This document shows, piece after piece, positions 6,058 through 60,757 of a stretch of 64,000 nucleotides of DNA. The position numbers and the translations under genes are program-made. The stretch comes from a virus (lineage: Duplodnaviria; Heunggongvirae; Uroviricota; Caudoviricetes): IMG/VR virus record IMGVR_UViG_3300019845_000023, positions 5,058 to 69,057 of that record. One strand, 5' to 3'. Positions within the stretch are counted from its first letter, which is position 1. Every line of letters begins with the position of its first letter. The notes under the pieces are model-generated. The model had not been told where the DNA came from. It saw only the letters and a program-made list of their open reading frames with translations, and ran no database searches.

Positions 6058-6146
6058 ATTTGGTGGCAATTAACGTCTTGCCGCACGACATATGGGTTAT
6101 TATTTTTGTACCTCTCGTAACCTCTTTTGTTCTTAATCGAGCCTAT

Positions 6147-6219: not shown

Positions 6220-6222
6220 ATT

Positions 6223-6299: not shown

Positions 6300-6392
6300 A
6301 TTTAATTTCTTACTTGCCGCAACGCACCTCACCAATCTTTCAATTGCAGGGAGTTGCACCCTATTCATTGCGACTTTCAGAGGGTTACCCCT

Positions 6393-6468
6393 TGGCGATT
6401 CCGACGGGACTCGAACCCGTAACTGTAGCGTGACAGGCTACTGACTTAACCAGTTAATCGACAGAACC
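6393..6468 (-). tRNA. tRNA-Asp (GTC)
   Basis: T-arm GCGGGTTCGAGTCCCGTC identical to E. coli Asp; loop CUGUCAC. Confidence 0.65.
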
Positions 6469-6511
6469 ATTTATCGGAAGCTTTTCCTCCAGAGGACGGT
6501 TTACCAACCGA

Positions 6512-6558
6512 TTTTCTATATATATTATATCATAATTTTTTCAGAAAGTCAAATTTTT
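6512..6558 (-). promoter_or_regulatory. consensus promoter block
   Basis: TTGACT-...-TGATATAAT. Confidence 0.6.
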
Positions 6559-6559
6559 A

Positions 6560-6856
6560 TTAGGTTATATCCTCGAAATCGCTTTCATCTACACCATACT
6601 CATCGAAGATTTCCTCTTCATTCTCGTCAGTGATTTCAACGATGTCGTAACCACAACCCTCAAGGAACTCATCAAACTCTTCGTCTGTGTAAGAGCCTTC
6701 CCAGCCGAACTCAAGGTGAGTCCAACCTTCTGCGTAATCATAGAGACCTTCTTCCATATAAGCCGCAGCCTGCTCTTCATTTTCTGCGATAAGGAAGCGT
6801 CTGTCATCTGTACCACTGTAACCACAGTAGTAAGTAGCCATATATTTATTTGCCAT
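6560..6856 (-). CDS. hypothetical acidic protein
   Basis: ORF track. Confidence 0.5.
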   Translation of the reverse strand: MANKYMATYYCGYSGTDDRRFLIAENEEQAAAYMEEGLYDYAEGWTHLEFGWEGSYTDEEFDEFLEGCGYDIVEITDENEEEIFDEYGVDESDFEDIT

Positions 6857-6858
6857 TT

Positions 6859-7044
6859 TTATTCTCCTTCGTAAATCTTTTTAAGGTCGAGGTAAAGCTG
6901 GTAAGCATCTACATAAGTAGAATTGTAACCGCCTTCGTTAATTGCAACGACCACATCTCTGTCAAGGAAACCATTTCTTATGAAAGTAACTTCATAGCCC
7001 TCGGTCATTTCTGCCGCTTCAAGAACTATTTTTTCATTTTCCAT
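6859..7044 (-). CDS. hypothetical protein
   Basis: ORF track; promoter 7065-7111. Confidence 0.45.
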   Translation of the reverse strand: MENEKIVLEAAEMTEGYEVTFIRNGFLDRDVVVAINEGGYNSTYVDAYQLYLDLKKIYEGE

Positions 7045-7064
7045 TTTTGTTCCTCTCTTTCATC

Positions 7065-7111
7065 TTTTCTATAAATATTATATCATATTTTATAGAAAAA
7101 GTCAAATTTTT
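7065..7111 (-). promoter_or_regulatory. consensus promoter block
   Basis: same motif. Confidence 0.6.
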
Positions 7112-7118
7112 ATTTGTA

Positions 7119-7207
7119 TGGTCGGCAGGGAAGGACTCGAACCTTCAAGACCCCTAAGGGCAACGGGGTTACAGCCCGCGACGCTACCAGTTACGTTCTA
7201 CCTACCG
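7119..7207 (-). tRNA. tRNA-Tyr (GTA), class II, second copy
   Basis: loop CUGUAAC; long variable arm. Confidence 0.55.
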
Positions 7208-7303
7208 ATTTGGTTGACGTTTAAGTCCGCCTCGCTGCTCATACCCGTTTTTGTTTCGACCGTGAGAACTACATTTGCTCCAAAACTCACTATAAACTTG
7301 TCG

Positions 7304-7381
7304 TTGGCGATACCGACGGGACTCGAACCCGCAACCTCTGGAGTGACAGTCCAGTGCTCTACTCTATTGAACTACGGCACC
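7304..7381 (-). tRNA. tRNA-Asp (GTC), second copy
   Basis: loop CUGUCAC. Confidence 0.55.
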
Positions 7382-7499
7382 ATTTAATTGGAGCGATTAA
7401 GCGAACAGAGGTGTCGCTCCAGTGCAGTCGCTGTGACGTTATCCACACCCTCTTGTAGCGTTTACCATATGACTATTAAGCTACCACAATTTTCGTTTT

Positions 7500-7585
7500 T
7501 GGCGGGACGGACAGGATTCGAACCTGCATAGGAAATAAATTCCGACGGTTAACAGCCGCCTGCCTAACCGTTAGGCTACCGACCC
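7500..7585 (-). tRNA. class-II-shaped tRNA with anticodon GTT (Asn-like)
   Basis: 16-nt variable arm; loop CUGUUAA; one U-U in acceptor. Confidence 0.4.
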
Positions 7586-7588
7586 ATT

Positions 7589-7665
7589 TGGCGGGAAGTA
7601 TAGGACTCGAACCTATGACACCGCGGTTAACAGCCGCGTGCTCTAACCAACTGAGCTAACAACCC
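7589..7665 (-). tRNA. tRNA-Asn (GTT)
   Basis: loop CUGUUAA; acceptor has two U-U mismatches. Confidence 0.5.
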
Positions 7666-7692
7666 ATTTAAAATTGTCTTTCTCTCTTGACC

Positions 7693-7739
7693 TTTTCTAT
7701 AAATATTATATCATATTTTCTAAAAAAAGTCAAATTTTT
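7693..7739 (-). promoter_or_regulatory. consensus promoter block
   Basis: same motif. Confidence 0.6.
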
Positions 7740-7757
7740 ATTTGTTATTGAAGATTA

Positions 7758-7835
7758 TTGGTCGGGCATCGGGGACTCGAACCCCGAACTTACTGATTAA
7801 GAGTCAGTTACGCTAAACCAATTGCGTCAATGCCC
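7758..7835 (-). tRNA. tRNA-Lys (CTT)
   Basis: perfect acceptor; loop CUCUUAA. Confidence 0.7.
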
Positions 7836-8093
7836 GATATCTTAGGGAGCAGTACCACTCCCTAACGAAGTAAGATTACTCCGAGTTGGTTCGTTAAGCT
7901 TGCCAACTACTCACCCCGTTACCCTACACCTGCAACGGTAGATGCCAACTCTTACTCTGCTGACGAGGGAGAGTCTATATCCGACCTACTCTCACTACGG
8001 GACAAGGATTTAACCATCTAACCCTCCTCAAGGTGTCCGTTTTATGCTTGGCGAGGACAAATCCAAGGTTACTACTCGGCTAACCACACCGTA

Positions 8094-8169
8094 TGGGGCT
8101 GGCGACAGGAATCGAACCTGCAACCTTCCGCTTACAAGGCGGACGCACTACCTATTGTGCTACGCCAGC
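8094..8169 (-). tRNA. tRNA-Thr (TGT)
   Basis: perfect acceptor GCUGGCG; loop CUUGUAA. Confidence 0.7.
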
Positions 8170-8188
8170 ATTTCTATCTTGTGCCCTT

Positions 8189-8263
8189 TGGAGATACTGG
8201 TGGGAGTCGAACCCACGACTCCAGTTTTGCAGACTGGTGTCTTAGCCTCTTGACGACAGTATC
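8189..8263 (-). tRNA. tRNA-Cys (GCA) with Glu-type D-arm
   Basis: loop CUGCAAA; D-arm UCGUCAAGAGGCUAAGACA. Confidence 0.55.
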
Positions 8264-8286
8264 TCCAAAAGGCACAAGAATTAAGG

Positions 8287-8667
8287 TTAATCGTCTTGTG
8301 ATATTATGTAATATGATATTTGAGTGTTTTCAATAAATTCGTCCACCCATTTGTTATAGTCTACGTCTTTATAAGCAAAGCCGAGTCTATTAAACAGATG
8401 ATTAGCGGTTTCATAGAGGTCTCCGCCATCTTCATAGAGAGATTCAACAACCCAGTCCATTAAGTCCTTTTCGTCACATCTTAAGCCACGAATGACTCCT
8501 GTATGGGTTACGTTATATTGCTCATTTGTCCAAGTGTACTCGACATCGTGGACGAGATTCTTTAGAGCTTCCTTTGCTTTCTCTATGTAATACTCAAGTT
8601 CACCGAGAACGCCTTCTATCTCTTCATAATTACCATCGGCGATTATATCTGATACGAAATCAAACAT
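8287..8667 (-). CDS. hypothetical protein
   Basis: ORF track; promoter 8685-8732. Confidence 0.5.
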   Translation of the reverse strand: MFDFVSDIIADGNYEEIEGVLGELEYYIEKAKEALKNLVHDVEYTWTNEQYNVTHTGVIRGLRCDEKDLMDWVVESLYEDGGDLYETANHLFNRLGFAYKDVDYNKWVDEFIENTQISYYIISQDD

Positions 8668-8684
8668 CTTTAAACCCCTTTCTA

Positions 8685-8732
8685 ATTTTCTATAAATATT
8701 ATATCATATTTTATAGAAAAAGTCAAATTTTT
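8685..8732 (-). promoter_or_regulatory. consensus promoter block
   Basis: same motif. Confidence 0.6.
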
Positions 8733-8763
8733 GATTTTTGTTTTTTGTTTTTCTTGGAGAAAT

Positions 8764-8838
8764 TGGCACCCTCGGTAGGAATTGAACCCACATCTCAACG
8801 TCCGTAGCGTCGCGTCCTATCCTTTGAACGACGAGGGC
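8764..8838 (-). tRNA. tRNA-Arg (ACG)
   Basis: loop CUACGGA. Confidence 0.6.
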
Positions 8839-8841
8839 ATA

Positions 8842-8918
8842 TGGTCGGAAGTGCGGGATTCGAACCCACAGCCTCGTGCGTCCAAGGCACGCCGTCTACC
8901 AAATTGACGTAACTCCCG
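8842..8918 (-). tRNA. tRNA-Pro (TGG)
   Basis: loop CUUGGAC. Confidence 0.6.
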
Positions 8919-12481: not shown

Positions 12482-12827
12482 TGGTGGAGGCGAGGAGAAT
12501 CGAACTCCTGTCCGAACCTCGTCATATCTATCGTCTACAAGCTTAGTCCATTTTTTTATACAAGTTTCACGCCTTAAAGGACAAACAGTCTGTTAACTCG
12601 TCTTGTCAAGATAGTCCATCAGGCACAGACAAGAACGTGCAAGTGAACCGTTTTTTATATAGACCATATCACAGTGTAGCTTTCACTGTTGAATGATATG
12701 GCAAAGTGTTAAAAGTGCTGCTCAGGCAGCGATTGCATAATCTGCGTTTATATTTAAAAGTGGCTATATGGGTGCCGCCCGCTTGCAGATAGGGAACTCA
12801 GAAATCCGTCGAAACCTTTACGCCCCC
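12482..12827 (-). ncRNA. ssrA: tmRNA (SsrA-like)
   Basis: 5' GGGGGCG...GGUUUCGACGG; 3' GGACAGGAGUUCGAUUCUCCUCGCCUCCACCA; G3-U70; internal tag frame ...ADYAIAA-UGA. Confidence 0.6.
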
Positions 12828-34962: not shown

Positions 34963-35252
34963 TACTTCGTCTCCTCAAAATCTTTTACACCGATGCCGAT
35001 TAAATCTCCTATACCATAAAAGAGGTCATCGCCGTTAGAATGTAACGGAACGCCAAGGCATCTCTTATGCTTACCAACATTCGGCGGTCCCATATCTCTG
35101 ACCTGTGACTCGAAACTTACTTTGTCAATAGTAAATTTTTCAGTAAAGACAAGTCCACAGCTTCGACATTTATAATAACGTGTACCGTCATAATACTTTT
35201 CTCTTCCCATTATGTCCTCCTTAATATACCAGACCAGAGTGACACATTCCAA
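34962..35252 (-). CDS. hypothetical protein
   Basis: ORF track. Confidence 0.45.
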   Translation of the reverse strand: MECVTLVWYIKEDIMGREKYYDGTRYYKCRSCGLVFTEKFTIDKVSFESQVRDMGPPNVGKHKRCLGVPLHSNGDDLFYGIGDLIGIGVKDFEETK

Positions 35253-35625
35253 AGACCAATGTCTCTGGCGTATGGATTATCTCTCTGAACATATTAACTT
35301 CTGTAAGATAATCTCTGAAAGTTTTTGCAATGCGCCGCCCTTCCTTACAGAGAATGATATTCTTCGGCGGCTCATAGTAACCATACACACTCCAGTCCTC
35401 AGCTTCTTTGATAAAAAGATGGTCTACATCAAGAATAACAAGAGCTATTCTGGTCATACCAATGAGCTTAGTCATATCGTGTATCTGTGTATTTGTATCT
35501 GCCGCTGTAGGCTTAATGTAAATTGCGGAGTTTACTTCTGTATCAATAGGAAGTATAAACTCCTTCTTATACTTTTCAAGAATAGTAAAAGGAATATCCT
35601 TTAATTTCATTATTGTAAACTCCAT
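35221..35625 (-). CDS. hypothetical protein
   Basis: ORF track; promoter 35647-35694. Confidence 0.5.
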   Translation of the reverse strand: MEFTIMKLKDIPFTILEKYKKEFILPIDTEVNSAIYIKPTAADTNTQIHDMTKLIGMTRIALVILDVDHLFIKEAEDWSVYGYYEPPKNIILCKEGRRIAKTFRDYLTEVNMFREIIHTPETLVFGMCHSGLVY

Positions 35626-35646
35626 TTATTTTTCTCCTTTAACTGA

Positions 35647-35694
35647 TTTTCTATATATATTATAACATAAAATAAGCGGAAAGTCAAATTTTTT
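35647..35694 (-). promoter_or_regulatory. consensus promoter block
   Basis: same motif. Confidence 0.6.
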
Positions 35695-35741
35695 ATTGAC
35701 TCTCCGCTTTTATAGTTAAATATTACGTTTCAGTTGTCGCG

Positions 35742-37148
35742 TCAATTTTCGCTGGGCTTTGCGCTTGAGTCCTTCTGGACGCCGAAGCCTTTCGCCATAA
35801 GCATTGCCATCAAAAAATCCTTATTGTCGCCGCCAGACTTATCGCTGAGCATAAGGAAAGGAAGCATTGCATTCATGTCCATTGTGCCGCCGTTAGCATT
35901 GTTCATCATAGAGAACATAAGCATAGAGCTCATATCTGTATTACCGTCGCTGAACATAAGGAAAGGAAGTATGTTGCCGAATGGATTCTCAGCATTTGCA
36001 TTTGTGCCGCCGAACATATCCATAGGTGTCATAATCTTAGTGTAGAAATCGAAACCGAAGATAGACTTCTTAGGTGCGAAAGTCTTGATTTCATTGCTCT
36101 TAGGCTCAACAGCAACGATAGCTGTCTTTGCGTTCTCCTTTACGACAAGAGGAGTTCTGTCAGCAGGGTGAAGGATTACATCACCAACTGCAAGCTGTGA
36201 CTTAGACACAGGCATTGCAAAGATAGGAATGTCCATTACCATATCAGATACATTGGTAAGTGAACCGTCCTCATTATATACGTTATATGTTACGCCGTCT
36301 TCTGCCTTAAAAGCGATACCGTTGAAAGAATACTTGATGGTATTTGTATCTACCTTACCGAACATAAAGTCGCCCATTAACTTTTTCATATTCATTGATT
36401 TTTCCTCCTTAATAACTTCTATACTTTTGCCATTTTTAAACACTATTTTAGGCTCTGAATTTACATCACTCAAAGAGAATGAATGTATTGCATCGCCTAT
36501 TGTTACTACGTCATCTTTCTTCACATAGAGTGAAGAAGGTTCGTATTTAACATATACTGGCTCACACTTTTTAATGTCGTAATCTATAATTTTAGACCAT
36601 GCGCCAAGTGCGCTAAGAGCCTCGAGTTTAGCAGGCATACACTTGTAATTAACGTCTCGAAATACTTCTAAGACCTGCATCCAGCTATCGCCATAAGGGT
36701 CTTTCTTAATTGTTCCCATAGACACGGAATCAACATCTGACAAATGCTGAGTTACACGAGCATTGGTCAATACCTTGATTTTGTCACCAACGGCTAAGCC
36801 ATTAAGTGTAGCAACTTCGTAGTAATAGACCTTTGCGTCAGGACTATAATTACCGTCTCTATTAGGGAAGATAGCTGCAATAAAATCGCCTTTAGCCATT
36901 TCTTCCTCCTTCTTTCCTGTTAATACTTCAAGATTAAAAGCTGGTGTGCTAAATGATACTGATATACTTTTATTGGTCTACCACGGCATTTCAAGCATAC
37001 CGCTGCAGGAACAAACTGAATCGTAAGAAGTCTCAACTTTTAGGTCTGAAACTTCCCCGAAGTCAATCTGAATTTTCTCGCCTTTTGAATTTGTGCCCCA
37101 ACCTATAAGTTTATAGGTCTATGGCATAGTAGGGTACTCACTGTACAT
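35742..37148 (-). CDS. hypothetical protein with Met-rich C-terminal repeats; N-terminal extension read through two in-frame TAG codons
   Basis: frame open from ATG 37148 (GGAGGA RBS) through TAG 37119-37121 and TAG 36978-36980 into the annotated MAKGD ORF. Confidence 0.45.
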
Positions 37149-37980
37149 TCTCATTCCTCCAGATTTCGTCGCTTAACGCACGCTTAATGATGAGGAATTT
37201 CTGCTCGTCCATACTGTCAAGAACAGACTGGTCAAAGTTTAGACCCTCTTCTCTGTACTTAGCGAGCCAAGCATCTGCCTCTTCAACGATACGCTTACCA
37301 AGGTCCTTAGCCTGAGCCGCAGAGTAGTTGATTTGTCTATCCTTAACACCAAGGATTTCACCCCAGTATCTCTGCATATTCAAGTCTGAACCCTTAAATG
37401 GGTTAAGAATGTACGCGTAGTCTTCCTGCTTAAATTTTGAAAGCATAGCAAGCAATCTCATTTCGTGAGAGAGCTGCTTTGAAGCATAACCGTACTTCTC
37501 GACTTCCTCGACCTGAACTGGATAAGGGTGGTCAAGAGCATTAAACTTTTCCTTAATCTGACCGACAATAGCCTTTAATGCAGACTCTTCATTTGCGTGT
37601 GCAATAGCGTCCCTATTAAGAATAAACCAGAACATAGGGCTGTAATCTGGATTTACCCAGAACCAGTCTGAGTAAAGAAGCTCAACAAAGTTTGAAGAAC
37701 CCTTCTTCCACTGGTCAACGATAAGACGAATGTCCTTAACATCGACCTGACCGTTGAAAGGCATTTCTTCAACATGGCTTACAGGCTTTGAGTTGAATAC
37801 AATATCCCTCAGTGAAGGAACGACAACTGCCTTGTAATCGTAGTCACTCTTAGGTCGTCTCAGATTGTAGTTCTGAGCACCGTATAGAGCGATAAAGATT
37901 ACATTAAAACCTCTTTTCTGAAGCTCCCTGACTGCAACGTGCATAAGCTCCTCTTCTGGCATTATCACTTTCTCGTCCAT
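37138..37980 (-). CDS. Pol-beta superfamily nucleotidyltransferase
   Basis: YGAQNYNLRRPKSDYDY = hG[GSA]x10SDhDh signature. Confidence 0.5.
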   Translation of the reverse strand: MDEKVIMPEEELMHVAVRELQKRGFNVIFIALYGAQNYNLRRPKSDYDYKAVVVPSLRDIVFNSKPVSHVEEMPFNGQVDVKDIRLIVDQWKKGSSNFVELLYSDWFWVNPDYSPMFWFILNRDAIAHANEESALKAIVGQIKEKFNALDHPYPVQVEEVEKYGYASKQLSHEMRLLAMLSKFKQEDYAYILNPFKGSDLNMQRYWGEILGVKDRQINYSAAQAKDLGKRIVEEADAWLAKYREEGLNFDQSVLDSMDEQKFLIIKRALSDEIWRNENVQ

Positions 37981-38000
37981 TTTCTTCTCTCCTTTCCTTT

Positions 38001-38045
38001 ATTATAATAATATTATATCATAGATTATTTATAAAGTCAAATTTT
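38001..38045 (-). promoter_or_regulatory. promoter block variant
   Basis: TTGACT...TATAAT, upstream half diverged. Confidence 0.45.
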
Positions 38046-38527
38046 TAACTGTATCTGTAAGCTACAAAGATAACGTTATTCTCCTTCTCGACTTCTTCCA
38101 GTGTTTTCTTCATCACTGACCAGTCGCCGCCACCAAGACCGCAACCAAAAAGATAAGGAATAGCTATCGGCATCTGAGCGTAATCAGCAGGAATACATTC
38201 AAGTTCTCTGTAGCCGAGTATCATATCAGTAAAACCGTCCTTTACTGCCTGATAATCTGTATAGCATTTATCTCTGCCATAGTCATCTTGACCAAAGATA
38301 TTCCATATTTCGTGTCCATCTGCGGTCCAAGCACAACCTGTACCTAATGGAGACTTGTGATTGATAGCCCAGTATTCATCAATGAACTCCTTATAGACAT
38401 CAAAGACTTCGGGATAGCGGTCTTTAATTGTCCTTGCTAAGCCGCCGCCCATAACTCCTCGACAGTTTACCTGATGAGCTATAATGTGTACGTCTGTATT
38501 TAAAACATCACCGTGGGTAATTATCAT
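38045..38527 (-). CDS. macro-domain protein (ADP-ribose binding/hydrolase)
   Basis: IIAHQVNCRGVMGGGLA motif. Confidence 0.65.
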   Translation of the reverse strand: MIITHGDVLNTDVHIIAHQVNCRGVMGGGLARTIKDRYPEVFDVYKEFIDEYWAINHKSPLGTGCAWTADGHEIWNIFGQDDYGRDKCYTDYQAVKDGFTDMILGYRELECIPADYAQMPIAIPYLFGCGLGGGDWSVMKKTLEEVEKENNVIFVAYRYS

Positions 38528-38823
38528 TCGTCTTCCTCCTTTATTCCATAATCGTCCCATTCCGCATCATCGGGAATCCAGGTCCAGCTATCTTCAAGGG
38601 CAGTTCGATAAGATGTAACAACTACTCTGTGCTGCTTATATGCAACCGCATTTATATCAAAAGGATGGTCTAATATCCACTTGTCGATATAATCACCGAA
38701 GTCTTCTTCCTCAGATAGCTCATAAAGATTTATAGGGCTTATAGGAGTATCCCTATCTTCAGGCTTTGCAAAGAACCATACCATTAATGTTCTCAATCGG
38801 TCAACCTCCAATTTATGTATCAT
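38524..38823 (-). CDS. hypothetical acidic protein
   Basis: ORF track. Confidence 0.5.
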   Translation of the reverse strand: MIHKLEVDRLRTLMVWFFAKPEDRDTPISPINLYELSEEEDFGDYIDKWILDHPFDINAVAYKQHRVVVTSYRTALEDSWTWIPDDAEWDDYGIKEEDE

Positions 38824-39014
38824 TAGTCCTCCTTAAGTGTCTGCTTGACATCATCAACTGTAAACTTTATACCCATGCCAGTGCTTTTGAGGAAATCTGT
38901 TGCCTTCTTTGTATCCTCTTCAGACTCAATATCTTCATCAAAATAAATGATAAGATACCAGAGCATAAAGATTACAAGTGCCGCCGTAAATAAAATTGCT
39001 ATCATAATCTTCAC
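38823..39014 (-). CDS. small membrane protein
   Basis: TM helix. Confidence 0.45.
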   Translation of the reverse strand: MKIMIAILFTAALVIFMLWYLIIYFDEDIESEEDTKKATDFLKSTGMGIKFTVDDVKQTLKED

Positions 39015-42462: not shown

Positions 42463-42620
42463 ATGCTGCCCGAGACAGGAATCGAACCGTTACCCTCCGC
42501 CTTCTTCAGGCGGCGTGCACACCTATGCACTACAAGGGCAGTCTGGTCGGGGAGGATGGGATTCGAACCCACACTCATCGTGCTCCTAACGCATTAATTG
42601 AGTAGCTGACGTATCTTTAT
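42463..42620 (-). other. two degenerate tRNA-like segments (G33 loop, broken T-stem; 3' half without partner)
   Basis: partial cloverleaf elements only. Confidence 0.3.
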
Positions 42621-42696
42621 TGGTGCCGAGGGGGAGAGTCGAACTCCCTACGCCAAGCTCTTCAGGCTTGCGCTCTACCAGTTGAGCTACCTCGGC
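42621..42696 (-). tRNA. tRNA-Phe (GAA), second copy
   Basis: perfect acceptor; loop CUGAAGA. Confidence 0.6.
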
Positions 42697-42720
42697 ATTA
42701 TCAAGACAGTTATACTTATA

Positions 42721-42828
42721 AACTCTACCCGTTGAGCTACGCGACGCGAACGCCACGGTGGGATTCGAACCCACATCCCCCTTTGTGCAAAAAAGAAAAA
42801 GTTTTAAGTGTTTTGCTGAACTGCCTTA
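42721..42828 (-). other. orphan tRNA 5' half next to orphan T-arm/acceptor fragment
   Basis: GCGUCGCGUAGCUCAACGGGUAGAGU then UUAUAAG...UGUCUUGAUAAU. Confidence 0.3.
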
Positions 42829-42829
42829 T

Positions 42830-42906
42830 TGGTCGGGGCGGTGGGATTCGAACCCACAGAATCGTGATTTTGAGTCACGCACGTTTACCAGTTACGTCAC
42901 GCCCCG
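42830..42906 (-). tRNA. class-I-shaped tRNA with Leu anticodon CAA
   Basis: 5-nt variable loop; loop CUCAAAA; A73. Confidence 0.5.
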
Positions 42907-43033
42907 ATATAAAATGCAAAATATGAAGAGGATACCACACCCTGCAGAGGCCCATATTTATTTATATCCCGCACCATAAGCTTCTTCGCGCTTCAATCCG
43001 TCGACTGTCCTCATGGCCATCCGTGCGGTTTTC

Positions 43034-43109
43034 TGGGTGGAAAGATGAGATTCGAACTCACACCTTCATGGGCCACAACCATGCGCTCTACCATTAAGCT
43101 ACTCACCAC
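43034..43109 (-). tRNA. tRNA-His (GTG) with encoded G-1
   Basis: loop UUGUGGC; C73; extra 5' G. Confidence 0.6.
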
Positions 43110-43143
43110 ATCAATTCCGACTTTAACCCAAGTCGGCAGGGTT

Positions 43144-43176
43144 AAATAAAACCAAATCTGCCTCCACACAGTGGAG
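43144..43176 (-). terminator. rho-independent terminator inside tRNA array 2
   Basis: CUCCAC-UGU-GUGGAG then GCAGAUUUGGUUUUAUUU. Confidence 0.45.
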
Positions 43177-43216
43177 TTAGCTGTAGACAATAGCACTGAA
43201 CATAACTATTCCTACT

Positions 43217-43292
43217 TGGTCTCGGTTATAGGACTCGAACCTATGACTTTCTCCTTGTAAGGGAGACACTCTCGCCGCTGAGTTAAACCGAG
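43217..43292 (-). tRNA. tRNA-Val (TAC)
   Basis: loop CUUACAA. Confidence 0.65.
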
Positions 43293-43321
43293 ATTATCAA
43301 GACTCTCTATACCTTGCGGTT

Positions 43322-43394
43322 CCGGAAGGGGGATTCGAACCCCCATATGTACGATTTTAGGTCGTATGACTTAGCCACTTTGTCTATTCTGGAA
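43322..43394 (-). tRNA. class-I-shaped tRNA with anticodon TAA and C33
   Basis: loop CCUAAAA; no encoded CCA. Confidence 0.4.
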
Positions 43395-43541
43395 AGGAAT
43401 ATTGCTGAAGAGTCTTTATTTGGTTCGGGTATGCTTATCGGAGTCAAGTACTCGCAGTTCCTCTTTCGAGGTATTTTCTTCGGAGTAAAGACCTTAAGGT
43501 TCGCGTAACCTCTCGTGCCCTAACCCATATCCGAAACCCGA

Positions 43542-43618
43542 TGGTGCCGTTAGAGGGACTCGAACCCACACTAACCAGTTCCTAAGACTGGCGCCTCTGC
43601 CAATTGGGCTATAACGGC
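43542..43618 (-). tRNA. class-I-shaped tRNA with Leu anticodon TAG
   Basis: perfect acceptor; loop CUUAGGA. Confidence 0.5.
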
Positions 43619-43682
43619 ATTGTTAAACAGTTCGAGTTACGGTCAAACTGAAGGTAAGCACCGATTAAGCAGCCAGATACTC

Positions 43683-43913
43683 CTATTCAGAATAATCAAG
43701 CTTTTCAATTCTTTTCATATCGGAATATGTAACCTGCTTCCAACCACTCTTAGGGTGGTTAAAGGCACACATCCAGCAGGAACAATGAATTTTACCTTTG
43801 GCTAACTTTCCGTCGCAATCACAAAACCAATGATGAGTTTCATCAATGATATGTCTTTTGCGAGCTATGTGTTGTCTTCTCTGATAACGATAGTATGCTC
43901 TATCTCTTTCCAT
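43683..43913 (-). CDS. Cys/His-rich small protein
   Basis: ORF track; embedded in tRNA array. Confidence 0.4.
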   Translation of the reverse strand: MERDRAYYRYQRRQHIARKRHIIDETHHWFCDCDGKLAKGKIHCSCWMCAFNHPKSGWKQVTYSDMKRIEKLDYSE

Positions 43914-44053
43914 TGTGCCGCCCTCCGAAAAATTATAATAACGAATATAGGCAACCCACTACTTACTTTCCTTACCAGCGTAAATTAAGCACCTTCGCTA
44001 CGTATTGCTACTACCTCAGTATTTAATTTACTATGCCCTTCCCTCGATATTCG

Positions 44054-44575
44054 TTACTTAGTAATTCTGTTTGCGATACCAGAAGCAGCGTAGCTGTCTG
44101 GCTTGATAGCAACCTCGAAGCCGCAAGTCTTAATCCAAGAGGTAATCTCAGTAATAAGCTGATTTGTCTTACCTGCGTGACCAATGTCAGCGTGGACAGC
44201 GAAAGTAAATCTTCCGTCATTAGACATTTGCTCAAGGTCAATATCATAGTCGATAAGAGCATAAGCAAGAGCATCTACGAAACCTGTTGCGTTCTCAATA
44301 GAACGAGAAGTCTCTTCCTGTATCTTAGTCTTAAGAACTCTTATCTTTGGTATATCTTGCTTGCGATAGAAGAAAATGCCGCCATCACCGATACGGTGAA
44401 CAGCAATTACTTCCACCATTCTTGTGCACTTGTGGTTCTGGCTATCTGTACCCACAGTTATTTCGTATGAGGCGTTAGGTGCCTTTGCGATGTAGTCGGC
44501 TACAATAGAGCCTATCTGTGAATAACGAACCTTCTCACCATTACCACGAGTAAATATCTTCTCGGTAATCACGGT
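44054..44575 (-). CDS. hypothetical protein (possible RNase H-like fold)
   Basis: ORF; probable GTG start after AAGGAG. Confidence 0.4.
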   Translation of the reverse strand, partial: TVITEKIFTRGNGEKVRYSQIGSIVADYIAKAPNASYEITVGTDSQNHKCTRMVEVIAVHRIGDGGIFFYRKQDIPKIRVLKTKIQEETSRSIENATGFVDALAYALIDYDIDLEQMSNDGRFTFAVHADIGHAGKTNQLITEITSWIKTCGFEVAIKPDSYAASGIANRITK

Positions 44576-44728
44576 TAATCTCTCCTTTATATTCAAATAT
44601 TCAAGACAGTTATGTTAGCTACCTTTTGATTAAAATTCAAATGCTTTTAAAGAATTGCTGGACTGTCTTAGTGGTGATAATACGTGCCGCGGCACCACAG
44701 ACCGCTATATGTGGTCGCACGTATTCTC

Positions 44729-44815
44729 TGGTCGGCTCGGTGGGACTCGAACCCACACGCCCTTGCGGGCACCAGCTCCTTAGGCTGGCGCGTCTGCCAA
44801 TTCCGCCACGAGCCG
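44729..44815 (-). tRNA. tRNA-Leu (AAG), class II
   Basis: long variable arm GCCC-UUGC-GGGC; loop CUAAGGA. Confidence 0.55.
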
Positions 44816-44883
44816 ATTTATCAAGACTCATCTTGTGTTTTTATATGCCCAAAAAACTTTCAGAGTTGCTGCTGAGTCTTATC

Positions 44884-44960
44884 TGGTCGGAGATGCGGGA
44901 CTCGAACCCACGGCCTCTCGCTCCCAAGGCGAGCGCTCTACCAAACTGAGCTAATCCCCG
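44884..44960 (-). tRNA. tRNA-Pro (TGG), second copy
   Basis: loop CUUGGGA. Confidence 0.6.
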
Positions 44961-45030
44961 ATTAATTGGCGGCTTCAGGGACGCTACAAGATAACCAACC
45001 GCCAGAGTTATCACGCACTTAATGTCCCAA

Positions 45031-45107
45031 TGGTCGGCGAGATGGGATTCGAACCCACACTGAATGGATTTTAAGTCCATTGCCTCTGCCTGTTGCGCTA
45101 CTCGCCG
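45031..45107 (-). tRNA. class-I-shaped tRNA with Leu anticodon TAA
   Basis: perfect acceptor; loop CUUAAAA. Confidence 0.5.
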
Positions 45108-45174
45108 ATAAGCCTATTAAATAGGCTACAAGATATAACCCCTTTTACCGCGGGGCAGTCTCCCCAATATAATT

Positions 45175-45227
45175 GGTTGGGGAGATAGGAATTGAACCTA
45201 CAAAAGTGAGTTGCTGATATATCTTAG
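45175..45227 (-). other. orphan tRNA 3' fragment (T-arm plus acceptor CUCCCCA-A-CCA)
   Basis: GUAGGUUCAAUUCCUAU T-arm without a 5' partner. Confidence 0.3.
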
Positions 45228-45303
45228 TGGTCACGCCAGCGAGGCTCGAACTCGCATTTTAGCCTTGAAAGAGCTACTTCCTACACCTGTTAGAAGATGG
45301 CGC
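45228..45303 (-). tRNA. tRNA-Glu (TTC)
   Basis: loop CUUUCAA; Glu-like D region. Confidence 0.5.
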
Positions 45304-45324
45304 GATTCATCAAGATGTGCTTTT

Positions 45325-45400
45325 ACCTCTCATGAGGATTTGAACCTTACCGTCCCCTTTTTGGGGCTGTGCTACCAGATTACACCATAACGCCGAGAGG
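45325..45400 (-). tRNA. tRNA-like gene with atypical anticodon arm (CCCC-AAAAA-GGGG)
   Basis: good acceptor and T-arm; anticodon not assignable. Confidence 0.35.
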
Positions 45401-45456
45401 ATTTAAAATGGCGGCGTTAAAAACTTTAAAGAAAAAGTTGCTGACACATCTTTATT

Positions 45457-45530
45457 TGGTTGCGCAGACAGGACTCGAACCTATATCAACGGATAATGAC
45501 TCCGTTATGCTACCTTTGCACTACCGCGCG
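45457..45530 (-). tRNA. tRNA-Met-like (CAT) with C1-A72 mismatch (initiator-like?)
   Basis: stem ACGGA/UCCGU; loop GUCAUUA. Confidence 0.45.
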
Positions 45531-45539
45531 TTCTCTTTA

Positions 45540-45587
45540 TTTTCTATAATTATTATAGCATAAATTATAAAAAATGTCAAATTTTTG
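45540..45587 (-). promoter_or_regulatory. promoter block TTGACA-17-TATAAT within tRNA array
   Basis: AAATTTGACATTTTTTATAATTTATGCTATAAT. Confidence 0.6.
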
Positions 45588-46381
45588 ATTTCTAAGTCAT
45601 TTCGTAAGCACTCTCACCGCGTGAAGGTAGACTTAATTGAGAGTATTTCTTCAACAATCTTGGGTGCCGCCACATCTCCTGCACACAGGAGACAGGGTAC
45701 TCGAACCCCTCCATCGCCAGTTGCTGAAAGGAATTTCAACCTAATCTCATTAGTTATAAAGCCACTGAGCTGTAGCTATGCGAATAATTTGCCGCAATCA
45801 ACGGGCGACTATTCTAATCGCCGTCATAACCAACACAAGTTATGAACCATTGTAATGTCGTCAGGTTCCCACACTTACGCAGTAAACGCGCCGCTTAACC
45901 ACTTGGTTTAGGTATGTTCATAACCAAGAAATTTTCCCTTTTACATCGTCAGCAGTAGATGTCGTAATTTTATCGGTACTTCCCCGAATGGACATTGCGT
46001 GCCTATCGTACTCACGGTAATGTACGTAACCGCTGCCGTGCCAGCCAATACACGGATTTATACTGCCATCACACAGTCGGGCAGGTCTGTGATGGGTCTC
46101 TGCCCAATTTGGTTTTTGTGGTTTTAAACAGTCCAATGAGTAAACCTCAACTCAACTGTAGAGAATATTTGGTGGTTCGCTCTCTCTCAGCGAAGGTGTA
46201 AAGGGAGTTTAAACCACTTCCTCGTGGGGTTTTAACGTCTTTTCCTTGACAAGTCTCGCCGCAACCAGTACCATTTAAGGTACGCCAATCACTACGGGTT
46301 GCACATCCTTACTTTACCTGCCCAACAGGTCGGCGGTTGGACCCGCCAGTGTCCCTTTTATTCTCTTTAAGTAATTGGCAA

Positions 46382-46456
46382 TGGTGTGGGATAGGAGAAT
46401 CGAACTCCCACCGCCTGTTTGGAAGACAGGAATACTGACCGTTATACGAATCCCAC
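46382..46456 (-). tRNA. tRNA-Gly (TCC)
   Basis: perfect acceptor; loop CUUCCAA. Confidence 0.7.
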
Positions 46457-46469
46457 ATTAGTTCTTATT

Positions 46470-46518
46470 TTTAAGTATAATTTATTATAACATATTCTAA
46501 GAAAAAAGTCAAATTTTT
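46470..46518 (-). promoter_or_regulatory. promoter block variant within tRNA array
   Basis: TTGACT-17-TATAAT. Confidence 0.55.
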
Positions 46519-46528
46519 AATAGTGATT

Positions 46529-46654
46529 GTCTTTGTAGGGGTCTGTCTTCTTCTTATCATGGGTTGCGGCGATGATGTCTGGCATAACCTCTATGAGCTT
46601 CCAAAGAAGTACGGTTACGCAAACAACTATTAGGTACTGCATCAGACAGACCTC
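46529..46654 (-). CDS. small membrane peptide (41 aa)
   Basis: hand translation; AAGGAGG RBS. Confidence 0.35.
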
Positions 46655-46666
46655 CTTTCAAGACAT

Positions 46667-46743
46667 TGGTTTCTCCGCTTGGATTCGAACCAAGGAATGG
46701 CAGTTTTAGAGACTGCTGTCTTAAGCCTCTTGACGACGGAGAA
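46667..46743 (-). tRNA. amber suppressor tRNA (anticodon CTA), Glu/Gln-type body
   Basis: perfect acceptor UUCUCCG/CGGAGAA; stem GCAGU/ACUGC; loop CUCUAAA; D-arm UCGUCAAGAGGCUUAAGACA. Confidence 0.65.
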
Positions 46744-46747
46744 TTAT

Positions 46748-46822
46748 GGTTGCCGCTCTGGGAATCGAACCCAGTAAGACGGAGTTAGAGTCCGTTGTCC
46801 TCGCCAACTAAACGAAGCGGCA
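46748..46822 (-). tRNA. amber suppressor tRNA (anticodon CTA), Glu-type body
   Basis: perfect acceptor UGCCGCU/AGCGGCA; stem ACGGA/UCCGU; loop CUCUAAC. Confidence 0.65.
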
Positions 46823-46907
46823 AAATTCTCCAAGACGCCTTTACATTTACCTTTTAAACATTTTAAGTGTTCTATTGTAAGAAATGATTGCAGGATGCGT
46901 CTTTCAT

Positions 46908-46955
46908 TCTTATAAAATAATTATAACATATTTTATAAAAATTGTCAAATTTTTG
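46908..46955 (-). promoter_or_regulatory. promoter block variant
   Basis: TTGACA...TATAAT. Confidence 0.5.
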
Positions 46956-46963
46956 AGTGCTTA

Positions 46964-47227
46964 TTAGTCTACAGCAGTTGTAGTAGTTGTCTCTGTTGTA
47001 GTCTCTTCTGCCTCAGTTTCTGTGGTAGTAGTTGTTTCTTCGGTAGCCTCAGTTGTCTCCTCTGCTACTGTTGTAGCTTCAGTTGTTTCAGCTTCTGTTG
47101 TTTCAACTTCTGTTGTAACTACTGTTGTGGTTTCACTGTTGCTTCCGCTATCCTTTGATGTATCGCAAGAAACAAAAGTTACAGCCATAGCGCCTGCCAT
47201 AAGACAAGCTAAAATAGCCTTCTTCAT
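46964..47227 (-). CDS. Thr/Glu-rich lipoprotein
   Basis: signal peptide with lipobox-like Cys. Confidence 0.5.
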   Translation of the reverse strand: MKKAILACLMAGAMAVTFVSCDTSKDSGSNSETTTVVTTEVETTEAETTEATTVAEETTEATEETTTTTETEAEETTTETTTTTAVD

Positions 47228-47580
47228 TGTGTTTCACCTCTTTGCTTTTTAAATAAGAACCCTTGCTTGTATATCGAAACCTCGTATTATATCCACAGTC
47301 ACATCGTGATTTACTCCCACACAAGAGGGCTACCATGGAGAAGGGGCACGCCCCGAGATGGGCGGCAATAATCATAGAACGCTATACGAAAAGCATAACG
47401 TACTAAGGAACTCTTTCCACACGTGGTGGATGAGCTATCGTATTTCTACGACCCCGCACAGCGGGTAGAAGTCATAATGACCTCTTAACAGTAATTTTGA
47501 TTGAGCCGCGTTTCCTCTTTTAAGTCTGACTAACTGCGGTAAAAAATCCAGACTTCAAAATTACTTTTAAGAAATCATTA

Positions 47581-47675
47581 TGGCGCGGTCGGGGAGACTC
47601 GAACTCCCACACCGATTGCTCGATTACTCATAGTTTAGCAAACTACTGCCTTACCAAATTAGGCTTACGACCGCA
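47581..47675 (-). tRNA. tRNA-Ser (GCT), class II
   Basis: perfect acceptor; loop UUGCUAA; long variable arm. Confidence 0.55.
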
Positions 47676-47807
47676 TTATCAAGATACGTTTTTTCGATAT
47701 ACGTTGTTCTACCAGTTGAACTACTCCGCCATATTGGCGACGGAGGCAGGACTTGAACCTACACCTACGGCGTGATAGGCAATCTATTGCTTGCTGACGT
47801 ATCTTAG
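47676..47807 (-). other. orphan tRNA 5' half with leader module plus orphan 3' fragment
   Basis: GGCGGAGUAGUUCAACUGGUAGAAC...AAAAAACGUAUCUUGAUAAU; T-arm GUAGGUUCAAGUCCUGC. Confidence 0.35.
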
Positions 47808-47809
47808 TT

Positions 47810-47887
47810 TGGTGTGCCTGATGGGACTCGAACCCATGACCCCCTGATTAAAAGTCAGGTGTTCTATGCCAACTGAACTACAGGCAC
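47810..47887 (-). tRNA. tRNA-Lys (TTT)
   Basis: perfect acceptor; loop CUUUUAA. Confidence 0.7.
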
Positions 47888-47986
47888 ATTAACATCCGCT
47901 GAGCATCTTATTGGAACGCTTTCACCATGCGAGACCTCTATTGTTTATTTGCTGGCAGAATTTGAACCATTAACCATAGCGAATAT

Positions 47987-48062
47987 TTGGTGGGACGCCT
48001 GAGATTCGAACTCAGATAAGCTCGGTTATGAGCCGAGTGCACTAACCATTGTACTAACGTCC
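47987..48062 (-). tRNA. tRNA-Ile2/Met (CAT), Ile-derived body
   Basis: anticodon arm CUCGG-CUCAUAA-CCGAG parallels tRNA-Ile(GAT) at 5981. Confidence 0.55.
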
Positions 48063-48119
48063 CATTAAAGAAAGGAAAGGGGCATACTTTCAAGATGGCT
48101 ATGCCAGACCACTAAGTTA

Positions 48120-48193
48120 TTGGCTTCGGCAAAGGGAGTCGAACCCCTATCAACAGAGCCAAAATCTGTTGTCCTACCATTAGACGATACCGA
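48120..48193 (-). tRNA. tRNA-Gln (TTG)
   Basis: loop UUUUGGC; D region shared with Gln(CTG) at 4532. Confidence 0.6.
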
Positions 48194-48222
48194 AATCTAT
48201 GGAGTCATAAAGACTCCAAATA

Positions 48223-55369: not shown

Positions 55370-55395
55370 TTCTTAAATCAGTTTTCATTTGCTTC

Positions 55396-55710
55396 CTAAT
55401 TAGAAGTATCTTCGGCAGGCGTTGCTTCTGAGAAATTAAGGAAGAGACTGTCGTCAATACAATTGACTATTTTTGTAACTCTACCTCCCTCATCTACATC
55501 AAACTGAACAACCTGTCCATTGAGGTTTTCCCAGTTTGGTGTGTCTGCCGCCTGAAGGATACCTGCGATTCCATTTAAGTCTTGTATTATAATTGGACCT
55601 ACGGGATAATGCTGCTCTTTAGTTGCAACTACAAGCTATACTCCCATTACCCATTCGTCACCGTTCTTTGCAAGTCCAAGATATGTACCAGTAATCTTAC
55701 CATTCATCAT
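55396..55710 (-). CDS. hypothetical protein read through an in-frame TAG at codon 25
   Basis: ATG 55710 with AAGGAGG RBS; TAG 55636-55638; 80 further sense codons with no internal start; terminal TAG 55396. Confidence 0.45.
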
Positions 55711-55725
55711 TAGAAAATCTCCTCC

Positions 55726-56874: not shown

Positions 56875-57906
56875 TTATCCCTTTCTGATGTTATATCCAT
56901 ACTGGTCGGAGTGATAAAATTCTATCCAGTATTTTTCTTTTTCGGTCTGTTCTTCTTTTGGGCAAACCTCTACGATTTCCCAAGTGAAGTTCTCCAAACC
57001 TTCTTTGAACATAGCGTCATAGATTTGACCAGCTATTCGTTCAATATTACAGCCGCGCTTAGCATGGGTACGCCAACGGTCTATAAACTTTGTTGTTTTA
57101 CCAATATAAACTTTTTCATCATTTATATTAGTAATCTTATAAATGCCGCCCTTATCTTTCTTGTCACCAAGAACTCGTTTAAAGAGCTCCTCTATTTGAG
57201 TTTTATAGTAAGTCTCATATAGGAGTTTATAAAAGATTTCTGGACGGGAGAAGCCAGGTGCCATAGACTTTAACTTAGCTATATCTGAAAGAGTTAAAGT
57301 ATCGAGAGTAATGTGATAGAAGTCGCGTTGCTTACGAACTTCCTCATCTTTCTTAAACTAAGCTACGATTGCCGCCTGTCTTTGTTCAAAGGCTTTAATT
57401 TCTTCAGTCAACGCCGCCTTTTTCAAATTTATTTCGTCGCTGAACGTCTAAAAATTTACAGCCAACTGCTCCTTATCTTTCTCATATTGAGCCTGAACAC
57501 CAGCTATCTTCTTTTCTCGTTCTGCTGTCGCCGCGGCAACGATTTCAGCATTTTCTTTTTGACGCTCAAGTTCAGCTTCCCTATCCATTTTAGCATACTC
57601 TTCACGAGTTGCTATATATTGTGCGTCAAGTCTTTGTACATCGGTATTATATTGAGCTTTCTTCTCTTCGAGCATACAGGTGTATTCTCTTAATGATGCC
57701 TGTTTTCCTGCAATCTCCTTTTGGATTTCATCCGTCATTTCCTTGACGGCGGCATCTTTCTTCTCAATAAGTCCTTTCTTAACTTTCTCCTATTCGGAAG
57801 AAAACTTTAGCTTACCTTTAAGAGACTTAACCGATAGAATATCGCAGACGGCATATGTAATGCCGCCACACACGATACCAAGTAATATGACCAATATCCA
57901 TATCAT
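56875..57906 (-). CDS. TM helix, coiled coil and GIY-YIG nuclease fusion read through three in-frame TAG codons
   Basis: ATGA overlap at 57906; TAGs at 57790-57792, 57448-57450, 57358-57360; no TAA/TGA over 344 codons; GIYKITN..YIGKT motif in C-terminal part. Confidence 0.5.
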
Positions 57907-59821: not shown

Positions 59822-60322
59822 TTAGATAGTGCGGAAGTGGTTATATTTTCCATCTCCCCACCATTGGTTGCAAGTCCAGCCTGCAAATGTGTCGGGGTTG
59901 TTAAAGTAATAATCTACAGCGTCTGCCATCGCTGAGTAATGGATTGAGCCGCCGCAGAAATAATCTGAATATTTATTAAATCCCCAAGGAGCACAAGTCT
60001 GGTCGAGTACTGCTTCAACCGAACCAGGCCAACGAGAATCATTTACCATATTCATTACTGAAGCTACGATTTTTGCTCTTTCGTAGACATCAGGCATTCC
60101 ACCGTATTCACTTGCGACAATCTTGCAAAGCAATGTGTAATCATAATCGCTAACTACAGGAGCGGTTGCATTGCTTACATACGGATTTACTATTTCTAAA
60201 TTTGGATTACATTCGCTACATTTTCTACACTCAATATCGTTTGTATCTGTGATTTCATAACAAGTTGAATCAACCCAGTGACAAGTTGACTTATGTATAT
60301 AGTGTGTACTTGGTTTGTACAC
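59822..60322 (-). CDS. SleB-like cell-wall hydrolase (candidate lysin)
   Basis: Cys-rich N-terminus; RWPGSVEAVL..QF..W motif. Confidence 0.4.
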   Translation of the reverse strand: MYKPSTHYIHKSTCHWVDSTCYEITDTNDIECRKCSECNPNLEIVNPYVSNATAPVVSDYDYTLLCKIVASEYGGMPDVYERAKIVASVMNMVNDSRWPGSVEAVLDQTCAPWGFNKYSDYFCGGSIHYSAMADAVDYYFNNPDTFAGWTCNQWWGDGKYNHFRTI

Positions 60323-60346
60323 TGTGTACTCTCTTGGTGTCTCTGC

Positions 60347-60757
60347 CTATGTTGGTGCCGCTTCAGTAACTTCGGCAGTTGTTACTGGTGCCGCCGGCTC
60401 AGTTTCTTCAACTGAGGAAGTGGATGTGCTTGTGAGTGTTGTAGTTGTGGATGTGCTTGTGAGCGAAGTTGTGGATGTGCTTGTGGTTGTAGTTGAGGTA
60501 ACAGTGGTAGCTGTTGTGACTGGAGTTGTTGTAACTACTGTTGTAGTTGTTGACTCAGTTATTTCAGTAACCATTGCCGCCTTTACTGGCAGGTTTGTGC
60601 CGTGAGCTTTGTCAGTTCTTACCACGGTAGGTGTCGCTAAACAAAGCACGACAGCAGCTGCAAGAACTGCTGTCGCAACCTGAATTGTTCTTTTTACAGT
60701 TATTTTCATTATAAATTCCTCCTTTTCGTCCTTGCGGACTATGAGGGGAACACGCAT
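60347..60757 (-). CDS. Thr-rich secreted (mucin-like) protein
   Basis: signal peptide; (T/S/V) repeats. Confidence 0.45.
   Translation of the reverse strand: MRVPLIVRKDEKEEFIMKITVKRTIQVATAVLAAAVVLCLATPTVVRTDKAHGTNLPVKAAMVTEITESTTTTVVTTTPVTTATTVTSTTTTSTSTTSLTSTSTTTTLTSTSTSSVEETEPAAPVTTAEVTEAAPT

Follow-up and report, generated by a model that had tools for sequence, protein, structure and literature searches.

A phage gene with TAG codons confined to an accessory N-terminal module, and evidence for the reading of TAG as glutamine

The 468-codon frame and its two candidate starts

The gene considered here lies in a 64,000-nucleotide stretch of a tailed phage genome (Caudoviricetes; positions 5,058 to 69,057 of IMG/VR record IMGVR_UViG_3300019845_000023), which we call the window and along which all positions are numbered. 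It occupies a single open reading frame (ORF) of 468 codons (35742–37148) that includes two in-frame TAG codons and ends in a TGA (35744–35742). The ORF, its TAG codons, its Shine-Dalgarno (SD) sequences, and the suppressor tRNA(CUA) genes discussed below are all on the minus strand. The first start codon is an ATG (37148–37146) found 6 nucleotides downstream of a GGAGGA SD sequence (37155–37160) and within the 3' end of a minus-strand gene (37138–37980) identified as a nucleotidyltransferase by a match to phrog_388 (1e-11) and a weak Pfam match to RlaP. The nucleotidyltransferase ORF (37980–37138) ends with AAT GAG AAT GTA CAG TGA, its TGA being at 37140–37138, and shares 11 nucleotides with the 468-codon ORF, an arrangement that would permit translational coupling. 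Both the SD sequence and the overlap with the preceding gene were kept in clades A, B, and C of the relatives described in the next section.

An earlier sequence-only reading of this DNA had placed the start, its GGAGGA, and the overlap at these positions and had named TAG at 37121–37119 (codon 10) and 36980–36978 (codon 57) as the sole interruptions of the frame. Our analysis confirmed these coordinates, and the frame contains neither TAA nor TGA from 37172 to 35742. The extension, which had been estimated at about 80 residues, comprises 83 codons (81 sense codons and 2 TAGs) and corresponds to an N-terminal module (codons 1–83; 36900–37148) that is predicted to be a beta-rich domain. The remaining body of 385 amino acids (35742–36899) has no TAG and starts with MAKGD at codon 84. 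This second start is part of an internal initiation region (36897–36911) consisting of AAGGAGG (36911–36905), a 5-nucleotide spacer, and an ATG (36899–36897), and the predicted N-terminal peptide of the 385-amino-acid form is (M)AKGDFIAAIFPNR. If the TAGs are read as glutamine, codons 10 and 57 would have the contexts TMP-Q-TYK and EMPW-Q-TNK, respectively. The unusual Met-rich C-terminus pointed out in the sequence-only reading was also found, with 15 Met in the 94 residues of the tail (35745–36026; 16%) vs. 7% across the 385 amino acids.

One way to read this arrangement is as a decaying remnant, in which the TAGs are true stops, only the 385-amino-acid MAKGD protein is made, and the upstream frame has stayed open by inertia or chance. 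In favor of this reading, the SD sequence of the MAKGD start is near-perfect, and code-11 gene callers as well as the window's own database cluster (P0002) give a product of 385 amino acids. TAA and TGA together make up 0.0485 per trinucleotide in the window, which gives a 79-codon stretch free of both a probability of about 0.02, and 4% of off-frame 79-codon windows inside genes were empirically without TAA or TGA. With a chance probability of 2–4%, the window by itself is only suggestive, and it is the comparative data that make the case for a coding extension solid. A plus-strand ORF in the gap between the two genes (36953–37108, 51 amino acids) was rejected as an antisense artefact of the coding frame.

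Conservation of the upstream frame and the reading of TAG

A search with the extended translation returned 426 homologues, many of which covered 92–100% of the query including the extension. We fetched the DNA of 13 related loci (numbered L here, with database proteins numbered P). A homologous module in the same frame was carried by orthologues from about ten other phage contigs. The sequence-only reading had called for such a comparison and had held that orthologues starting at MAKGD after unrelated sequence, or having TAA or TGA in the upstream frame, would speak against the extension. Wherever an orthologue has sequence separating the nucleotidyltransferase gene from the body, the upstream frame was open, with interruptions by TAG only (L001, L002, L003, L005, L006, L010, L043, L045, L046, L048, L050, L051, and L052). 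No TAA, TGA, frameshift, or indel was found in the N-terminal module among these 13 loci, and the signs of a pseudogene (mixed stop types, indels, and relaxed selection) were not encountered in it. Orthologues that begin at the body do exist, namely the distant L047 and L049, which lack the module and have the body directly after the nucleotidyltransferase gene; all 13 others keep the frame. These two loci could be counted in favor of a remnant, but they indicate that the module is accessory and are not evidence that it is untranslated in the window.

Homologous N-terminal modules are present in clades B and C and in L006, and contiguous modules were found in database proteins P0001, P0007, P0014, and P0016–P0037. 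Some orthologues are already present in the database at full length, with Q in place of the TAG codons, among them the public homologues P0001, P0007, and P0014, which were called with TAG as Q. Selection was evaluated in the five sequences that share the TAG at codon 10 (the window, L001, L002, L005, and L003). Over codons 11–56, the pairwise ratio of nonsynonymous to synonymous substitution rates (dN/dS) was 0.00–0.11, and variable sites numbered 8, 2, and 21 at codon positions 1, 2, and 3, respectively, placing 21 of 31 at the third position. The low dN/dS after codon 10 indicates that the segment is under strong purifying selection as protein, in sequences that all carry the TAGs. Read from these alignments, the extension is coding sequence under purifying selection and is homologous to uninterrupted modules in relatives.

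The gap might instead hold small genes or a leader, with a 9-codon upstream ORF (MYSEYPTMP-stop) and a 46-codon peptide ending at the second TAG that together regulate the MAKGD gene. An ATG followed by nine codons and a TAG resembles a leader ORF overlapping the end of an upstream gene, and the sequence around the first TAG, ATG CCA TAG ACC TAT AAA, is invariant in the window, L001, L002, L003, and L005. In the 46-codon segment, however, purifying selection is strong from codon 11 onward, although no possible start codon (ATG, GTG, or TTG) precedes codon 51; for want of a start codon in the selected segment, we rejected a separate small ORF there. The segment after the second TAG, K.[IV].VSFST..F..E, is conserved across clades at the protein level, and the structure prediction gives it further strands of the same domain. 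In the AlphaFold2 model of the orthologue P0001, strands were found at residues 11–42 and 58–74, on both sides of codon 57, with predicted local distance difference test (pLDDT) values by 10-residue block of 79–82 for residues 11–40 and 80 for residues 61–70. The N-terminal module is predicted from this model to be one beta-rich domain. Neither L003 nor L006 has a stop at codon 57, and L006 has none at codon 10. A leader is, in our judgment, extremely improbable.

The residue inserted at TAG was evaluated from codons that interchange with it among orthologues. At codon 57, the window has TAG, as do L001, L002, and L005, whereas CAA (Gln) is found in L003 and a Gln codon in L006, a TAG-free locus whose gene translates cleanly under the standard code. 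The TAG at codon 26 of L048 corresponds to CAR in L045, L043, and L050 (MPDGR-Q-G), which was verified at the codon level. Glutamines at clade-specific positions of P0018–P0037 were considered as further support and rejected, since at the DNA level these residues proved to be TAGs that a gene caller had translated with code 15; they were counted toward the conservation of TAG and not as evidence for Gln, and only codon-verified interchanges were used. Database gene calls on L003, L005, L045, and L046 likewise have Q at TAG codons, and translation of these loci under table 11 did not match the stored proteins.

Two suppressor tRNA(CUA) genes were detected by ARAGORN in tandem, 9.5 kb upstream of the ORF and on the same strand (type A, 46667–46743; type B, 46747–46822). 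The acceptor stem of type A (U1-A72/U2-A71/C3-G70) is common to the tRNA-Gln(CUG) and tRNA-Gln(UUG) of the window, and its discriminator base, A73, is that of tRNA-Gln(CUG), with tRNA-Gln(UUG) having G73. Type B has U1-A72 and A73. The U1-A72 pair is also found in both tRNA-Gln genes and, elsewhere in the window, in one tRNA-Met only, when two ARAGORN calls without a 3' CCA are set aside. Type A is 91% identical to a copy in L045, and type B is 81–86% identical to copies in L003, L006, and L010. The two types share just 66% identity with each other and have separate orthologues in different relatives. Among the other ARAGORN calls, those for tRNA-Leu at 42465–42540 and 43318–43393 have no 3' CCA and odd acceptor ends and may be miscalls.

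These tRNA genes bear on whether the TAGs could be true stops that near-cognate host tRNAs read through in a leaky, context-dependent manner, in the style of Q-beta A1 or the gag-pol of murine leukaemia virus (MuLV). Both TAGs are followed by ACC, and an A after UAG favors suppression in Escherichia coli. Against this, the window encodes two cognate tRNA(CUA) genes that are conserved in relatives, and its other in-frame TAGs are followed by G, A, T, and C, leaving no common 3' context. Two stops in series at typical readthrough rates would also leave next to no product, and the strong purifying selection would then be difficult to explain. We consider leaky readthrough to have hardly any probability. 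The N-terminal extension through TAGs proposed in the sequence-only reading is thus supported by the frame, the selection, the Gln interchange, and the tRNA(CUA) genes; the readthrough named there is better described as genome-wide reading of TAG as Gln by cognate tRNAs than as leaky readthrough of a stop.

A second gene in the window (56875–57906, minus strand) needs TAG decoding to be intact, as judged from its alignment with homologues. It encodes a GIY-YIG protein of 343 amino acids with an N-terminal hydrophobic segment that is predicted to be transmembrane, a coiled coil, and the GIY-YIG domain, and it has in-frame TAGs at 57792, 57450, and 57360. Hundreds of full-length homologues have a consensus Q at all three TAG columns, with the caveat that some of the close homologues may have been translated with code 15 as well. 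With code 11, the ORF shrinks to the C-terminal 129 amino acids, and the resulting gap is filled by spurious plus-strand ORFs.

Other parts of the window and of its relatives also contain in-frame TAGs. At 59822–60757 (minus strand), two ORFs in the same frame are joined by one TAG (60349); the first part has a predicted signal peptide or transmembrane segment and then a Thr-rich linker, and the second is a Cys/Trp-rich domain of 166 amino acids. No Pfam match was found for either half, and the pair is probably one recoded secreted or membrane protein, for which it is a candidate. A gap in the code-11 gene map at 55378–55725 (minus strand) has a protein-like frame of about 110 codons with TAGs at 55638 and 55398, the latter followed 5 codons later by a TAA, and is a candidate recoded small gene. 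In the relatives, in-frame TAGs are sparse in most neighbouring genes and dense in mobile nuclease genes. A GIY-YIG/NUMOD homing-endonuclease gene of L003 (2397–3302) has 12 in-frame TAGs and its neighbours 0–1, which fits the published idea that recoding holds back mobile nuclease genes. ORF statistics over the whole window did not reveal recoding, in that counting TAG as sense lengthened ORFs less than counting TGA or TAA as sense; the reason is the low density of in-frame TAGs in this region of the genome.

Taken with the Gln interchange and the tRNA(CUA) genes, these comparisons make it very likely that TAG is read as glutamine (code 15) in the window phage and its relatives and, jointly, that translation of the ORF starts at 37148 and passes both TAGs, with phage tRNA(CUA) inserting Gln, to give a protein of 468 amino acids. 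A remnant behind true stops is correspondingly improbable to a high degree, set against the low dN/dS among TAG-carrying sequences, the lack of TAA, TGA, and indels in 13 loci of at least four clades, the TAG/CAA interchange at codon 57 together with the cognate tRNA genes, and the dependence of the GIY-YIG gene on TAG decoding.

TAG placement, the internal start, and module exchange

The family has six TAG positions: codons 10 and 57 in clade A, codon 18 in clade B with codon 26 in addition in L048, codon 38 in clade C, and codon 18 in L051. All six are in the N-terminal module, and no TAG was found in the body (about 370–420 codons) of any orthologue. With one representative for each of three clades, the ratio of TAG to CAR codons was 4/3 in the module vs. 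0/17 in the body (Fisher p = 0.003).

The boundary between module and body is also distinctive. An internal GGAGG is located 5–9 nucleotides upstream of the junction codon in clades A and B, a GGAG core is located 6 nucleotides upstream in clade C, and the SD-like element of TAG-free L006 is at 14 nucleotides. The junction codon is always ATG or GTG, with GTG in L050, L051, and L052, so that all three Val cases use a codon that accounts for 5–12% of Val codons. The 36 nucleotides before the internal ATG are invariant in four of five diverged clade-A-type sequences; the fifth, L005, has a synonymous change from GAA to GAG at codon 83. Third positions were variable in 2 of the 20 codons before the internal ATG vs. 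21 of the 46 codons elsewhere in the extension (p = 0.005). The internal SD sequence and start codon, being conserved and constrained at the nucleotide level, have the features looked for as the mark of a nested isoform. In the distant clade of L047 and L049, which lacks the module, the gene starts at the body, 4 nucleotides past the nucleotidyltransferase stop. From these features, it appears that the body can be, and probably is, translated alone from the internal start.

Two loci appear to be mosaics, as read from the alignments. L005 has a clade-A module on a clade-B or clade-B-like body, and L043 (132–1598) combines a clade-B module with a clade-A body. In both, the switch is located at the internal SD-ATG, which suggests module exchange by recombination.

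A second internal site, AAGGAGG-N8-ATG (KEEKSMNMKK), was found within the body at 36380–36420 (minus strand), where the most conserved C-terminal domain begins. The motif EEK.MNMKK is near-invariant in the family, and the distant relatives L012–L037 match only from there onward. It is possible that this site is a third nested start, and we list it as a candidate.

The account that we propose in full is that of a code-15 phage with one 468-codon ORF in which both TAGs are read by phage tRNA(CUA), and we hold it with considerable confidence. Ribosomes would initiate at the SD-preceded ATG at 37148, which overlaps the nucleotidyltransferase stop, and would read codons 10 and 57 with the tRNA(CUA)s from 46667–46822, presumably charged with Gln by the host glutaminyl-tRNA synthetase. 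The product would be an 83-residue beta-rich module fused to the 385-residue body. Whether the internal SD sequence and ATG or GTG would also yield the 385-amino-acid body alone, independently of suppression, we rate at about even chances. If so, first-start translation would abort after 9 codons when the suppressor tRNA is scarce or release factor 1 (RF1) wins, leaving only the short form, and rising levels of tRNA(CUA) would then let the long form accumulate, with the TAGs gating only the N-terminal module. The further step, that TAGs are selectively kept in an exchangeable module between two starts as a suppressor-tRNA-gated isoform switch (body-only first, with the long form later or added), is put forward tentatively, and we would not wager on it.

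Several observations weigh against one or another part of this account. Codon 10 aligns with N in TAG-free L006 or with N/D in other clades, never with Q; the position is uninformative, and its residue assignment is taken from the other TAG sites. In the mechanical ORF list, 7 of the 93 minus-strand ORFs end in TAG, by which TAG may still terminate part of the time. Two of these are spurious overlaps with tRNA genes, four others meet TAA or TGA within 2–12 codons, and the remaining one (60347–60757) runs in frame into the next ORF; this count covers the window, and the late genes lie outside it. Only one TAG-free lineage with the module was seen (L006), which leaves few independent events behind the association of TAGs with the internal start. 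The K-K-E-E-E-M motif at the junction could be kept for protein reasons, and the nucleotide invariance may reflect recent recombination there, since the L005 and L043 mosaics break at that point.

The last two observations would also suit a gene in which the recoding is real, the MAKGD codon is a mere internal Met, the full-length protein is the only product, and the TAG clustering plays no part in regulation. All of the recoding evidence applies equally to such a gene, its K/E-rich codons would mimic an SD sequence by composition, and the 14-nucleotide spacing in L006 is in its favor. Less easily accommodated are the restriction of the junction codon to ATG or GTG with GTG in every Val case, the spacing kept in clades A, B, and C, the body-only orthologues, which show that the body works alone, and the absence of TAG from the Gln-type codons of the body when 4 of 7 in the module are TAG. 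A single product is a serious possibility, though we lean away from it.

Genomic context, protein family, and comparison with known systems

The nucleotidyltransferase gene and the 468-codon ORF are adjacent in all relatives. A sigma-70-like promoter with a TG element (TTGACT-17-TATAAT; 38012–38040, minus strand) scored 11/12 in a consensus scan ahead of the pair, and a hairpin with a T-run resembling an intrinsic terminator (35674–35709, minus strand) is located directly past the TGA; both are pattern matches only. This suggests, from the arrangement of the sequence, that the two genes form one transcription unit. A promoter within the gap was rejected, as the only match was 9/12 at 36980–36953 and the region had 8 promoter-like matches vs. 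6.7 ± 2.9 in shuffled sequence. On the downstream side, at 35659–35709 (minus strand), the terminator-like hairpin overlaps a near-consensus sigma-70-like promoter (TTGACT-17-TATAAT, 35687–35659) of the next gene (35625–35221).

The window is densely coding on the minus strand and has 45 tRNA genes and a transfer-messenger RNA (tmRNA). The ORF sits among genes for RNA repair and nucleotide metabolism. Its neighbours in the window include two RNA ligases, ThyX, a UvrD-type helicase, HNH and GIY-YIG nucleases, a weak match to the Macro domain, a protein with a kinase-like AAA_33 domain and HD, and a DUF2828 RNA-binding protein that was named by synteny with the gene of the relatives and matches phrog_850 in the window. 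These contents suggest that the window is from the early or middle region of a large phage, and the related contigs reach 140–182 kb. A blastn search of 35000–39000 against INPHARED phages gave no match, and thus no annotated relative. The tmRNA (12482–12827, minus strand; tag peptide ADYAIAA) adjoins tRNA arrays at 2884–8918 and 42465–48194.

The most conserved domain of the body contains YSFNG...FGFDFYTK...NPFGN. The tail motif NPFGN[IM]LPFLM and the Met-rich pattern are conserved across the family, and the tail was modelled with low confidence as helices (pLDDT about 40). Neither Pfam nor PHROGs has a family for the protein, and Foldseek against the PDB found nothing below E = 0.2. Against BFVD, the only significant Foldseek matches of the body were uncharacterised proteins of large phages (E from 8.6e-14 to 7.6e-07), among them gp39 of Bacillus phage G (E = 8.6e-14). 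The protein belongs to an uncharacterised family of large phages. A member with 35% identity, P0073, is annotated by NCBI in a metagenome-assembled genome of Methanobrevibacter smithii, which might point to a wider range of hosts or result from an artefact of binning.

For annotation, the consequence is that standard-code callers truncate or split this gene and others in the lineage; the correct product here would be the 468-amino-acid protein and not the 385-amino-acid one. The lineage would be one more among large rumen and gut phages that use TAG as Gln with their own suppressor tRNAs.

Nested products in one frame arise in phages by internal initiation, as in S107/S105 of lambda, gp4A/4B of T7, and A/A* of phiX174. 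Like these pairs, the gene described here has a conserved SD sequence and ATG or GTG inside a longer ORF of the same frame, and the downstream part works alone in relatives. Unlike them, its long form would also need suppression of the TAGs between the two starts, and the pair is here a prediction from sequence. Programmed readthrough provides a second comparison, since in Q-beta A1, MuLV gag-pol, and the eukaryotic MDH1x (PMC5133446) a stop inside a longer conserved frame also leads to an extended protein. Those extensions are C-terminal and are made at low efficiency by near-cognate tRNAs at a true stop, whereas the extension here is N-terminal, has dedicated cognate tRNAs, and follows from what would be a reassigned TAG.

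Ivanova and colleagues reportedly described stop-codon-recoded phages in 2014. Phages using code 15 are known from the Lak megaphages, the crAss-like phages, and other gut clades (Borges et al., bioRxiv 10.1101/2021.08.26.457843; Peters et al., PMC9523058; Devoto et al., bioRxiv 10.1101/356790). The reading of TAG as Gln with phage suppressor tRNAs is already well established, and in this respect the gene is an ordinary gene of a code-15 phage. As in the known cases, in-frame TAGs occur in conserved genes and align with Gln, the phage encodes suppressor tRNA(CUA), the TAGs are found in a subset of genes with most of the early-type region here compatible with the standard code, and homing-endonuclease genes are heavily recoded (L003). 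Unlike the known cases, the gene with the TAGs belongs to neither the lysis nor the structural genes; it appears to be part of an operon that has a sigma-70-like promoter and lies among RNA-repair genes, and the phage lineage has no nucleotide match in INPHARED at the sensitivity of blastn.

A further difference, and a modestly novel one, is that the TAGs here occur only in an accessory N-terminal module, ahead of an internal start that is conserved. This placement in an optional module between two starts suggests, without amounting to proof, a short isoform that is independent of the suppressor tRNA and a long one that depends on it. The features shared with the known cases fit the published model, in which in-frame stops delay translation until the suppressor machinery has been made (Borges et al., bioRxiv 10.1101/2021.08.26.457843), and the terms "isoform" and "N-terminal" are absent from that preprint. 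Should the isoform switch be real, recoding would serve to choose between forms of a protein rather than as an on/off control of a gene, a step past the published view of recoding as simply a block on late genes.

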